NCBI GenBank assembly: GCA_038248345.1
Contig: JBBRXO010000045.1
Coordinates: forward strand, 1-22,113
Reading direction: 5' to 3'
Source of the DNA: Armatimonadota bacterium
Lineage (GTDB): Bacteria; Armatimonadota; Hebobacteria; CAIYQO01
DNA: 22,113 bases
Below are positions 13,279-16,297 of this stretch, piece by piece. The position numbers and the translations under genes are program-made. Numbering within the stretch: the stretch's first letter is position 1; the number at the start of each line of letters is the position of its first letter. The notes beneath the pieces are model-generated. The model was not told where the DNA came from. It ran no database searches and saw only the letters and a program-made list of their open reading frames with translations.

Positions 13279-15240
13279 ATGAAACGGCTGCTACTGGTAT
13301 TAGTGTTCCTGCTCTGGTTGACGGCGAATAGTTGGGGGCAAGATAATTTTGCAGATTTACGGTCGGTTACTCAGCCAGCAAACGCTCTCTGGTTGAGTAC
13401 TCTTGATCTGAGCAAAATGACTACCGGTTGGGGCACGCCGCATGTAGATATGTCAGTAGATGGCAATCCTATCAAGCTGCACGGGATAATTTATCCGCAC
13501 GGTGTCGGCACCCATGCCGAGAGCGAAATTACCATTGATTTGAAGGGTGTCGTGCAGCGTTTTCAGGCGATGGTGGGGGTAGATGATGAAGTAAATGACC
13601 AGGGTTCTCTTACCTTCTCGGTCTTTGCCGATGATCGCCAGTTACTGGAAACTCCCATTCTCAAAGGGGGCGATGATCCGTATTTCATCAATATTGACCT
13701 CACTAATGTCCGAACTTTGCGCCTGCGTATCGGCAATGCCAACGGAAATATCAGCTGCGATCATGGCGACTGGGCTGGCGCTTTGCTCTGGTTAATACCT
13801 GATGCTAAAGAACAGCCAGTGTCGATAACCCCTCCGCCACCGCCGGTGCTCTCAACGGTGGAGCCGATTATCGCTTCCAAAGACGATATCGCAATGACAA
13901 TGAACAGCCCGATGATTGTTGGAGCAACTCCCACCCGTCCCTTCCAATACCTTATCGCAGCTGTCGGCCCCGCGCCAATTGTCTATTCCACAGAGAATTT
14001 ACCGGAGGGTTTGGCGCTGGACGCCACAACCGGGCTGATCACTGGAAAAATTGCCATCGCTGGAGATTATAAGGTGCTAGCAACAGCGAGCAGCGCAAAT
14101 GCTAGCGTTTCACGTACCATCACCATCAGCGCAGGGGCGCATAAACTAGGGCAGACACCTCCTATGGGTTGGAATACGGGCAGAATACTGAACCGACGTA
14201 TTAACGTCACAAAAGTTAAAGAAGCAGCGGATACACTGGTAAAAGCCGGGCTGGTGAGCCGTGGTTACCAATATATCCTCCTCGGAGATGGCTGGCAAGG
14301 ACAACGAAGTGTAACTGGTGAGTTGCAGGCCAACCCGAACTTCGGTGATATGAAAGAGCTGGCAGATTACCTGCATGCACGCGGCCTTAAACTGGGGATA
14401 TTCTCCACCCCTAGTGAAAAGACGGTTCGGGGCGCTCCCGGCAGTGCTGGGTATGAGGTGCAGGATGCCAAAACCTTCGCTGCCTGGGGGGTAGATTACC
14501 TGCGCTATGACTGGGGCACCTGTAAAAACCCGGACATCAAAGCGCCATATCAGGTAATGAGTGACGCGTTACAGGGTAGTGATCGTGATATCTTCTATTC
14601 GATCAGCCAATTCGGTATGGGCAATGTTTGGGAATGGGGAGCAAAAGTCGGCGGAAATAGCTGGCAGGTAGGCCAAACTGTCAGCGATACCTGGGCGCAC
14701 GTTTCCACAGATAGCATCAACCTGGAAGCCATCGGTTACGCTGGTCCCGGCCACTGGAATGACTATGACAGCCTGAAGGTGGGCAATATTAGCAGAGGCG
14801 GCGCGGCGATTAAAAGCAAGCTCACCCCCAACGAACAACTATCGCACCTTACATTGATGAGCATGATCAGCGCCCCCCTGCTGCTGGGATGCAATCTGAA
14901 TAGCCTCGATACCTACACCCTTAACCTCATCAGCAACACGGAAGTGCTGGCGGTGAATCAGGATACTGCTGGAACGCCACCAACTCGATTGAATATCGAG
15001 GGCGACGGAGAAGTGTGGTCACGTCAATTAGTAGATGGTACGCTAGCAGTGGCGCTTTTCAACCGTGGTGTCTCGAATACCCAGGTATTGGTTCGCTGGA
15101 CGGATTTGAAATTGACGGGGCTGCAGCAGGTTCGCAACCTGTGGCAACGAACGGAATTGGGCAATTATCCCGATGGATATAGCACCATAATACCTGGCCA
15201 CGGGGTGGTGTTATTGCGGGTGGGCACGCCCAAGGACTAA
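13279..15240 (+). CDS. Secreted NPCBM/NEW2 + Ig-like + GH27 (alpha-galactosidase-fold) protein with degenerate active site
   Basis: Signal peptide; NPCBM (HGVGTHAES...CDHGDWA); LPEGLALDATTGLITG Ig-like repeat; GH27 TPPMGWN, WGVDYLRYD, GPGHWND; C-terminal beta-sandwich. Confidence 0.9.
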   Translation: MKRLLLVLVFLLWLTANSWGQDNFADLRSVTQPANALWLSTLDLSKMTTGWGTPHVDMSVDGNPIKLHGIIYPHGVGTHAESEITIDLKGVVQRFQAMVGVDDEVNDQGSLTFSVFADDRQLLETPILKGGDDPYFINIDLTNVRTLRLRIGNANGNISCDHGDWAGALLWLIPDAKEQPVSITPPPPPVLSTVEPIIASKDDIAMTMNSPMIVGATPTRPFQYLIAAVGPAPIVYSTENLPEGLALDATTGLITGKIAIAGDYKVLATASSANASVSRTITISAGAHKLGQTPPMGWNTGRILNRRINVTKVKEAADTLVKAGLVSRGYQYILLGDGWQGQRSVTGELQANPNFGDMKELADYLHARGLKLGIFSTPSEKTVRGAPGSAGYEVQDAKTFAAWGVDYLRYDWGTCKNPDIKAPYQVMSDALQGSDRDIFYSISQFGMGNVWEWGAKVGGNSWQVGQTVSDTWAHVSTDSINLEAIGYAGPGHWNDYDSLKVGNISRGGAAIKSKLTPNEQLSHLTLMSMISAPLLLGCNLNSLDTYTLNLISNTEVLAVNQDTAGTPPTRLNIEGDGEVWSRQLVDGTLAVALFNRGVSNTQVLVRWTDLKLTGLQQVRNLWQRTELGNYPDGYSTIIPGHGVVLLRVGTPKD

Positions 15241-15277
15241 TAAAAAAACGGGGGCACGTCCTTTTAACGTGCCCCCG
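15241..15277 (-). terminator. Intrinsic terminator oriented for minus-strand transcription
   Basis: Perfect 11-bp stem CGGGGGCACGT/ACGTGCCCCCG (15249-15277) with a 7-U tract on the minus strand only. Confidence 0.88.
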
Positions 15278-15300
15278 CGGGTTATCTGGAGTATGGGAGC

Positions 15301-15339
15301 TTAGAGCTCACCACCTCCGCTGTGTTGGTTATAAATCAT
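15301..15339 (-). CDS. Putative 12-aa micropeptide MIYNQHSGGGEL (alternatively part of an sRNA)
   Basis: ATG 8 nt after GAAAGGAGGTG (15348-15358), inside its own promoter-terminator unit. Confidence 0.5.
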   Translation of the reverse strand: MIYNQHSGGGEL

Positions 15340-15367
15340 ATACACACCACCTCCTTTCACTAAGTAA

Positions 15368-15409
15368 ATTCTACCACCTGTTCTCTCATCTGTAAACAGG
15401 TTATCCACA
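15368..15409 (-). promoter_or_regulatory. Sigma70-type promoter with overlapping palindrome and adjacent DnaA box
   Basis: TTTACA (15391-15396)-17-TAGAAT (15368-15373) with TGn; IR ACCTGTT-N12-AACAGGT (15376-15401); TTATCCACA (15401-15409). Confidence 0.75.
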
Positions 15410-15493
15410 CTTTTTTGAAAATTTATTCACCGGGGCTTGCCACGGGCGTACTTCTCACTCGTCATCGCCCCCCGAAGAATCGTCTACTAGCTC

Positions 15494-16297
15494 CTATCCC
15501 CCTAATTCCTTCGACTTAAGTGTGGCGGCTTTCACCGCCTGGATAAGGGCATGGCGCAGACCATTCTCTTCTAGGGTGGCCAGGGCGGCAATGGTAGTAC
15601 CGCCCGGGCTACTGACAGCATCCTTCAACTCTGCCGGGTGCATCCCCGTTTCCAATTGTAATTTAGCCGTGCCATACACCGTCTGCGCCGCCAACCGTTG
15701 CGCGGTGGCCCGCGGAAGCCCCATCTGTACGCCCCCATCGGCCAACGCCTCGATAATTATCGCTACATAGGCGGGGCCGCTCCCGCTCAAGCCAGTAACG
15801 GCATCCAGCAAGCTCTCCGGCACCTCCTCGACGATAGCACTGGAAGTGAGCAATTTGTGCAATAATGTGCGGGTTGCAGTCGGTACTTTATCGGCAAAAC
15901 TAAGACCTACCGCCCCGGCCCCCACCAGGCACGGGGTGTTGGGCATGGCGCGCGCCAGCAGCAAATCAGGGCGAGCCAACGCGGTGGCAATGGCCTGGAG
16001 TTTAACACCGGCGGCAATGCTTAGCACCGCAATGCCGTTGGGCAAAATGGGGGATAACTCGGTGCATATCAGCGGTACCAGGTTCGGCTTAACCGCCAGG
16101 ATAACGACATCGGCTGACTTGACCGCGATGGTATTATCCGTAGTGGTAGCTACGCCCAGCTCGGTCGCTAATTTTCGTAGTTGCTCGCCATTGAGGTCAG
16201 CGAGCGTAATATCGCCCGCAGTTAGTTGGCCACTGGCGATAATTCCACGCGCCAGCGCCTCACCCATCTTCCCGGCGCCGATGAAGGTAAGTTTCAT
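15494..16297 (-). CDS. proC: Pyrroline-5-carboxylate reductase
   Basis: FIGAGKMG, LAVKP, RAMPNTP, TGLSGSGPAY, VSSPGGTT. Confidence 0.98.
   Translation of the reverse strand: MKLTFIGAGKMGEALARGIIASGQLTAGDITLADLNGEQLRKLATELGVATTTDNTIAVKSADVVILAVKPNLVPLICTELSPILPNGIAVLSIAAGVKLQAIATALARPDLLLARAMPNTPCLVGAGAVGLSFADKVPTATRTLLHKLLTSSAIVEEVPESLLDAVTGLSGSGPAYVAIIIEALADGGVQMGLPRATAQRLAAQTVYGTAKLQLETGMHPAELKDAVSSPGGTTIAALATLEENGLRHALIQAVKAATLKSKELGG

Follow-up and report, generated by a model that had tools for sequence, protein, structure and literature searches.

The minus strand of the window (the whole 22,113-nucleotide stretch of DNA analysed here, from an Armatimonadota bacterium) carries a real gene, a minimal variant of the small mRNAs with an extended Shine-Dalgarno (SD) sequence and an entry to a multi-phylum family. 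The family keeps RNA features, not a peptide. Since two SD sequences and the position of the stop codon are kept while the peptide changes, the RNA likely acts by gripping ribosomes. In particular, we lean slightly towards a reading in which the short RNA would load ribosomes and hold one of them at its stop codon, the peptide likely being a by-product. Action through SD motifs on the ribosome, one of the possibilities raised in the earlier note, appears to be the best reading.

This single-copy gene has been overlooked by gene callers and was apparently kept in Streptomyces and mycobacteria as well as in Acidobacteriota, Planctomycetota and Armatimonadota. Its frame, the register between the second SD and the stop, and its weak starts give the Rfam family Ms_IGR-5 a concrete mechanism, testable in M. 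smegmatis or Streptomyces, and the family offers a natural test case for whether in-frame SD pairing can hold a terminating ribosome.

Anatomy of the unit in the host genome

The DnaA boxes, promoter, SD, short ORF, second SD and terminator listed in the earlier note were all confirmed where it had placed them, in a unit on the minus strand. A promoter scan found the −35 hexamer TTTACA at 15391-15396 and an extended −10 element, TG-n-TAGAAT, at 15368-15376. This promoter (TTTACA-17-TAGAAT with TGn) has 10 of 12 consensus matches, is the best of three sigma70-like sites in 14500-16200, and is predicted to start transcription at approx. 15361. The first SD (SD1, 15346-15358), recognized by its pairing with the 3′ tail of 16S rRNA, contains GAAAGGAGGTG at 15358-15348, followed by 8 nt and the ATG at 15339. 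The 12-codon ORF MIYNQHSGGGEL (15301-15339, TAA at 15303-15301) belongs to a frame that is kept while its peptide varies, and includes the second SD (SD2, GGAGGTG, 15312-15318) 8 nt ahead of the stop codon; GGAGGTGGTG, in its second copy, begins at 15318. In the predicted fold, SD2 and the bases next to it pair with a C-rich strand (15300-15288) in a helix, P2 (15288-15318), that encloses the stop codon. The intrinsic terminator (15242-15277), composed of an 11-bp stem (15277-15249) and U7 (15248-15242), is the sole one that the scan detected within 14500-16200.

The complete set of signals had been described as hard to get by chance, and this is borne out because GAAAGGAGGTG has only two sites in the 2.98-Mb genome (the unit and the reverse complement of the 16S 3′ end) and the anatomy recurs in relatives; the rarity of the signals is qualified by the 32 occurrences of TTATCCACA. 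A copy search of the same genome found the unit once.

Upstream and outside the unit lies proC (15494-16297, minus strand), and an adjoining ORF of the alpha-galactosidase family (13279-15240, plus strand) is convergent; given these neighbours, no gene is reached by reading on from the unit. The closest ProC homologs that carry a name come mostly from Armatimonadota. The gene identities in the yggS, sepF and proC cluster were confirmed, but the proposed tie of the unit to this cluster did not hold, as neighbouring genes and their orientation vary across members (59 frames scanned). With its own promoter, its own terminator and a variable context, the unit appears, at the level of sequence, to be discrete and stand-alone, as had been claimed. 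In two genomes of family f2 (L053, L054), the convergent neighbour is gatB.

Reading frame, stop register and predicted fold

Three sets of members were compared: 23 from the host's own phylum, 44 from metagenomes and 118 non-redundant ones from GTDB species genomes. These 185 members are related by descent, and counts over them are not independent. Neither SD2 nor the stop played a part in choosing the 23-member set, whereas SD2 and a spacing of 8-11 nt are built into the search pattern behind the other two; therefore, only the 23 members test these features without bias. In that set, SD2 is followed by the stop after 8 nt (17 members), 9 nt (2) or 11 nt (4), and the ORF has 10-13 codons. For a ribosome that has the stop in its A site, the codon in its P site begins 7-8 nt after the GAGG of SD2 in 173 of the 185 members. 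This distance is matched by the GGAGG-ATG spacing in the host genome, which peaks at 5-8 nt.

The frame is stop-free in all 118 GTDB members, while the other two frames contain stops in 109 and 59 of them; the short open frame and the conserved second SD of the original description are supported. ORF length ranges from 10 to 18 codons, and none of the members examined has an ORF of fewer than 10 codons, a floor to be read with filters that allowed 7 codons in the ATG sets and with search gaps that set their own minimum in the pattern-selected sets. Among the 120 GTDB matches listed, 100 have an in-frame ATG, GTG or TTG, though the pattern asked for no start; the other 20 have CTG (12), ACG (4), ATC (2), and ATT or ATA, all located 9 nt after GGAGG. 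Moreover, the promoter was detected in 22/22 own-phylum members, compared with 1/22 control stretches, and stands 9-10 nt (−10 to SD1) from the SD in 19 of the 22, which bears out the promoter claim.

With the 16S tail, SD1 makes an uninterrupted duplex of 13 pairs, one of them G-U and 11 perfect, at a computed −22.6 kcal/mol, where the mature 16S end is assumed from the gene sequence. The duplex of SD2 with the same tail is shorter (computed −16.3 kcal/mol). The hairpin drawn in the earlier note is the minimum-energy fold, and the whole unit has a z of −5.3, with none of 200 shuffles as stable, although much of this value is contributed by the terminator. SD2 pairs with the strand 3′ of the stop in 23/23 own-phylum, 40/44 metagenome and 100/118 GTDB members. 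The stop codon itself is predicted to be unpaired in 13/23, 21/44 and 48/118; as this is only about half, the view that it sits at the hairpin apex is valid for the host family and not for the whole group. A terminator was found by script in 19/23, 32/44 and 59/118 members.

The SD2 helix is both kept and covarying. Its pairs are exchanged across the family (at one position T-A 65, C-G 43 and G-C 38 times), and the hairpin of the host family shows three double changes, equalled in one of 500 shuffles (13 related sequences). A strand-swap test gave a modest signal, with a member's own strand surpassing half of the swaps in 146/185 members and 90% of them in 68. A 5′ helix received no support among the own-phylum and metagenome members (33/67).

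Distribution of the family

A pattern of SD1 and ATG alone has matches in 26 of 251 own-phylum genomes. Within the class, each of the 18 matches is a full unit whose ORF has 10-13 codons; of nine other loci, three are full and six open longer frames. The 23-member set consists of these 18 and 3 together with two units from BLAST. When 31 genomes of the class were searched with a core model, the unit came up in 23 of them and in 13 of the 15 of good quality; it was not found in the other 8, two of which are at least 90% complete. A loose pattern matched 146 of the 251 own-phylum genomes but also gave many control hits, and served only to read examples. Other families of the phylum contain variants, and one of them, f7 (L357, L361, L362, L363, L366, L368), was seen by eye to have an ATT start codon, a start that infC also uses; it would make initiation in f7 sensitive to IF3.

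In GTDB species genomes, the pattern SD1-gap-GAGGTG-gap-TAR yielded at least 120 loci from 2 of 64 parts, which corresponds to an estimated 6,200 or so similar stretches, and by this estimate several thousand bacterial genomes from about ten phyla would carry the family: Actinomycetota for the most part, then Acidobacteriota and eight or more further phyla. The 120 matches listed comprise 102 from Actinomycetota and 18 others: Acidobacteriota (7), Latescibacterota (2), Planctomycetota (2), and one each from Syntrophobacter, Eisenbacteria, Zixiibacteriota, Sumerlaeota, Rokuibacteriota, Oligoflexus and ‘Heliobacteriaceae’. The last label (L240 in the 8.4-Mb genome G257) is doubtful because this unit and the others of its phylum resemble acidobacterial (Blastocatellia) ones. 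In the phylum of G257, 23/121 genomes have matches, 14 of them full units by eye; in the phylum of G258, 10/151 genomes match and only two contain a full unit by eye, thus the distribution is patchy. Several loci from the phylum of G257 (L399, L401, L404, L409, L410) share the upstream motif GAGCC...GGG(A/G)CCCGCC, and several have a GTG start of the rreB type. In a sample of 201 Actinomycetota genomes, a tally that takes in eight marked unpublished, 80 have a match, nearly always in single copy, compared with 14 for a reversed control.

The metagenome scan gave 56 candidates among 118 loci; the 62 loci without a 7-16-codon ATG frame were regarded as noise, and three more were left out. One of these three, L216, looks like a true member that the parsing script misread. 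An AT-rich clade (L132, L144, L157, L165, L198, L213) has the same anatomy and peptides that end in DITKAEVAAS. Here, an upstream TATTC...GCC(G/A)TTC motif replaces the sigma70 boxes, which suggests another sigma factor; a HIT-like gene stands beside two of the members.

The family pattern had no matches in a phage collection, and a looser pattern in phage contigs gave 43 matches, none of them a full unit by eye. Large phage contigs (L061, L067, L068, L072, L080, L083, L086, L088, L090) contain GAAAGGAGGTG in tandem with ATG TAG after the first copy, which is a different tandem-SD device. In three other phage contigs (L343, L345, L348), an rreB-like SD precedes a Lys/Gly-rich ORF of 11-13 codons whose last residue is Cys.

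Known relatives

At the Rfam gathering thresholds the window has no match, and none of seven weak matches at E values up to 10 comes near its cut-off. The statement that the unit belongs to no known family holds in this sense; it does not hold for actinobacterial members with the same core, which are RF02471 Ms_IGR-5. Six of 20 loci tested, all of them actinobacterial, score above threshold on that model (gathering 45 bits), whereas the host copy is not found by it and none of the 31 class genomes reaches the cut-off (a true locus in G004 has 19.8 bits). The host unit is therefore not a member by Rfam's test, though the core is common. The Rfam consensus has a strong SD, a short gap, GAGGUG and a UAG 9 nt later, and the host unit follows the same plan: SD1, a short frame, GAGGTG and a stop 8-9 nt on, with a helix between SD2 and the strand ahead of the terminator. 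In some Armatimonadota members the Ms_IGR-5 helix, GGUGGCUG/CAGUCACC, is identical letter for letter. In contrast, Ms_IGR-5 is 165-230 nt long with a large insert, compared with approx. 120 nt in the host, and the structured insert and the AATCC (AAUCC) motif of the long members are both missing from the host unit. Core profiles searched against the host genome gave E values of 1.5 (actinobacterial), 5e-4 (18 non-actinobacterial, top hit) and 0.014 (all 111), which are partly circular given that the cores were selected by a shared pattern; as evidence for homology between the host unit and Ms_IGR-5, these profiles are modest.

The actinobacterial RNAs of RF02471 include ncMSMEG15794c, ncMab10731 and SLIV_16488, and the family was reportedly described by Li et al. 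in 2013. In the parts of the record available, Ms_IGR-5 is catalogued as non-coding and of unknown function. The accessible portions of several papers describe a stand-alone sRNA unit with mapped transcript ends in Streptomyces avermitilis (PMC8780764), RNA-seq support in S. lividans (PMC8079986), an overlap with ncMSMEG15794c (PMC10454040) and ribosome protection in M. abscessus and M. smegmatis (PMC4974804). In particular, the supplement of the last, as far as accessible, gives the Mycobacterium abscessus homolog 70 RNA RPKM and 3,737 ribosome-profiling RPKM, an approx. 53-fold ratio; the figure is a single row that gives no positions, and RNase protection or library bias could account for it. 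Thirteen other ncRNA rows among those listed there have ratios of at most 1.9, and protein-coding rows alongside up to approx. 4 (PMC4974804).

The second group of relatives, the rre genes, is treated by Hahn et al. in a paper that, in the sections available, deals with Alphaproteobacteria only and regards the peptide as conserved; there, rreB co-sediments with 30S subunits, is weakly translated and decays in a start-codon-dependent manner (PMC5711450). The host unit resembles rreB and rreR in its own promoter and terminator, its extended SD, the unpaired 5′ purines and its variable neighbours, and like them it would be a stand-alone small mRNA with a short ORF (14-18 codons in rreB/rreR). It differs from them in its complementarity to 16S rRNA: rre genes are recognized by at least 16 nt of perfect complementarity and a GTG start overlapping the complementary stretch, and in rreB 17 nt run into the GTG, whereas the host has 11 perfect nt, 13 with one G-U, and a later ATG, 8 nt after GAGGTG. 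An rre gene with an ATG start is reported, in the same portions of the paper, from Azospirillum (PMC5711450). B. japonicum rreB is without SD2. One phage-contig homolog of rreB (L340) ends with GAGGTC-6 nt-TAG, and a locus at G704:C1:3788698-3788757 combines a full rreB-type 5′ end and GTG start with a complete SD2 and a stop 9 nt later. The latter is a possible bridge between the rre genes and the two-SD family. The core model R1 did not find six rreB/CC2171-like loci.

The Caulobacter sRNA CC2171 (RF01867) shares the GAAAGGAGGUG 5′ head and the 3′ terminator with the host unit, but its middle is unrelated and has an SD-like GAGGTC 6 nt ahead of the stop. On its model (gathering 75) the host unit scores 15.3 bits (E 0.29-0.72) and rreB-like loci 42-52 bits. 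In the prfB frameshift site and in translational coupling or re-initiation, an SD within the frame pairs, near a stop codon, with the 16S tail of a ribosome in elongation or termination; these systems act on a downstream frame, whereas the host unit has no start after SD2 and is a gene of its own. CC2171 is reported to be expressed in Methylorubrum in the accessible part of a preprint (bioRxiv 2022.01.24.477521), and extended SDs have been linked to non-canonical starts in S. aureus in the accessible part of another source (PMC13009471). The literature searched, mostly outside subscription journals, contained no description of the SD2-stop register, of an ORF in Ms_IGR-5 or of a link between these families.

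A proposed ribosome-holding model and its alternatives

In the proposed mechanism, transcription from the sigma70-type promoter of the host would stop at the terminator and give an RNA of approx. 120 nt. The purines at the 5′ end of SD1, which are largely unpaired, would capture a 30S subunit via the 13 pairs with the 16S tail, as the behaviour of rreB suggests, and initiation would probably be tight but slow; many homologs have weak or near-cognate starts. The ribosome would then read 10-18 codons and open P2, which would otherwise hide SD2 from free 30S subunits. Once the stop enters the A site, SD2 is 7-8 nt upstream of the P-site codon, like the SD of an ordinary start site in this genome; it would therefore pair again with the 16S tail, and release or recycling would presumably be delayed. 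It may be speculated that the 10-codon floor allows a second ribosome to fit at the start. A complex loaded or stalled in this way, or its ribosome-dependent decay, might then act as a readout of, or a buffer for, the state of initiation and of termination. In the available part of its source, 20-fold overproduction of rreB left growth unchanged (PMC5711450), which argues against a bulk ribosome sink. A point against the holding model is that rreB, the closest characterised gene, binds 30S yet is without SD2. As a tentative extension, which is less likely than not, an ancient single-copy ‘ribosome-clamp’ RNA in at least 11 phyla would unite Ms_IGR-5, the Armatimonadota unit and, more distantly, rreB/CC2171; it would clamp two ribosomes, the first at a weak start and the other at the stop, and serve as a dedicated sensor or store for initiation (through IF3-sensitive starts) and for termination/recycling capacity. 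If this is true, these RNAs would form a class of translated RNA that has the stalled ribosome complex as its product.

A rather doubtful alternative is that translation gates a regulatory RNA: a ribosome on SD2 and the stop would free the C-rich 3′ strand, and the insert in long members, to pair with the SDs of other mRNAs, bind a protein or be excised as an active RNA. The partner strand of P2 is indeed anti-SD-like and conserved, the long members have large structured inserts that share the AATCC motif, and rreB gives a stable 60-nt processing product in the part of the report available (PMC5711450). However, there is hardly any insert in the host version, and so short a strand would largely lie under a terminating ribosome. 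A switch in which the freed strand closes SD1 was rejected, as a constrained fold left that strand unpaired.

It is unlikely that the unit is a micropeptide gene, with an active peptide of 10-18 residues whose output the RNA features keep low or conditional. The strictly kept open frame would fit such a gene, as would the likeness of peptides within clades (MLHRP..., ...REVAxR); RreB and RreR are likewise conserved within their clades, and RreB is translated, according to the accessible sections (PMC5711450). Nevertheless, no residue is common to the whole family, and SD2 is translated in all three frames (to GGG or RG, to EV and, in a single case, to RW), which does not bear out a sequence-specific micropeptide as the main product. 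Family f2 contains both MLHRPGGGVS and MLHRPEVAAA, a frame change at SD2 that turns GGGVS into EVAAA. Moreover, the Gly codons of SD2 are never GGC, though GGC is the commonest Gly codon of the host (0.44), and near-cognate starts are frequent.

Compared with ribosome holding, control by DnaA, with a role linked to replication, is very unlikely for the family. A perfect DnaA box (15401-15409, plus strand) stands 4 nt 5′ of the −35, and an imperfect box-like 9-mer (8/9 match) was read from the sequence at 15423-15431 (plus strand). Both are retained by the −35 in the host genome (G000) and, although the gene upstream differs, in contig L160 and in G001, a genome of the same genus; in three f2 genomes scanned (L047, L048, L051) the unit lies 0.5-0.7 kb downstream of gyrA. 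Yet a box occurs upstream of only 1/22 own-phylum, 2/42 metagenome and 0/117 GTDB members, so the perfect box is confined to close kin and the suggested DnaA link does not extend across the family; the distal 9-mer, in the same place in G001 and L160, is missing from nearly all other members. In G001, moreover, the boxes lead into unrelated sequence near a contig end. The boxes would be at most a local promoter add-on. It is plausible that DnaA tunes the promoter in the host genus only. The G001 locus (L007, G001:C52:14576-14753) keeps both boxes and the −35 before the unrelated sequence begins, approx. 140 nt from the contig end, and represents either a lost unit or a misassembly. A Rex operator between the boxes (10/14 matches to the Rex consensus by eye) was dropped, being absent in G001 and L160.

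A sponge for CsrA/RsmA of the CsrB/RsmZ kind, also raised earlier, is barely tenable: the host genome encodes CsrA and the GGA of SD1 is partly exposed, but the unit has only three GGA motifs, none in a predicted hairpin loop except that of the terminator, and a stem hides that of SD2. Of five other carrier genomes, three have CsrA and in two it was not found, and a sponge leaves the conserved frame and stop position unexplained. The planctomycete genome G259 has 11 CsrA-family matches. A role as leader-peptide attenuator or type I toxin leader for a gene further downstream is largely refuted by context and retains a next to negligible probability: a short ORF, hairpin and terminator do resemble attenuators, and tandem-SD leaders, a kind linked to toxin leaders, occur among the phage matches, but the next gene is convergent, no co-oriented gene lies downstream, neighbours vary, and an ORF of at least 20 codons after SD2 is present in 1/185 members and absent in 184.

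Elsewhere in the window, a small ORF at 1447-1758 on the minus strand resembles, by eye, an antitoxin of the AbrB/MazE type.
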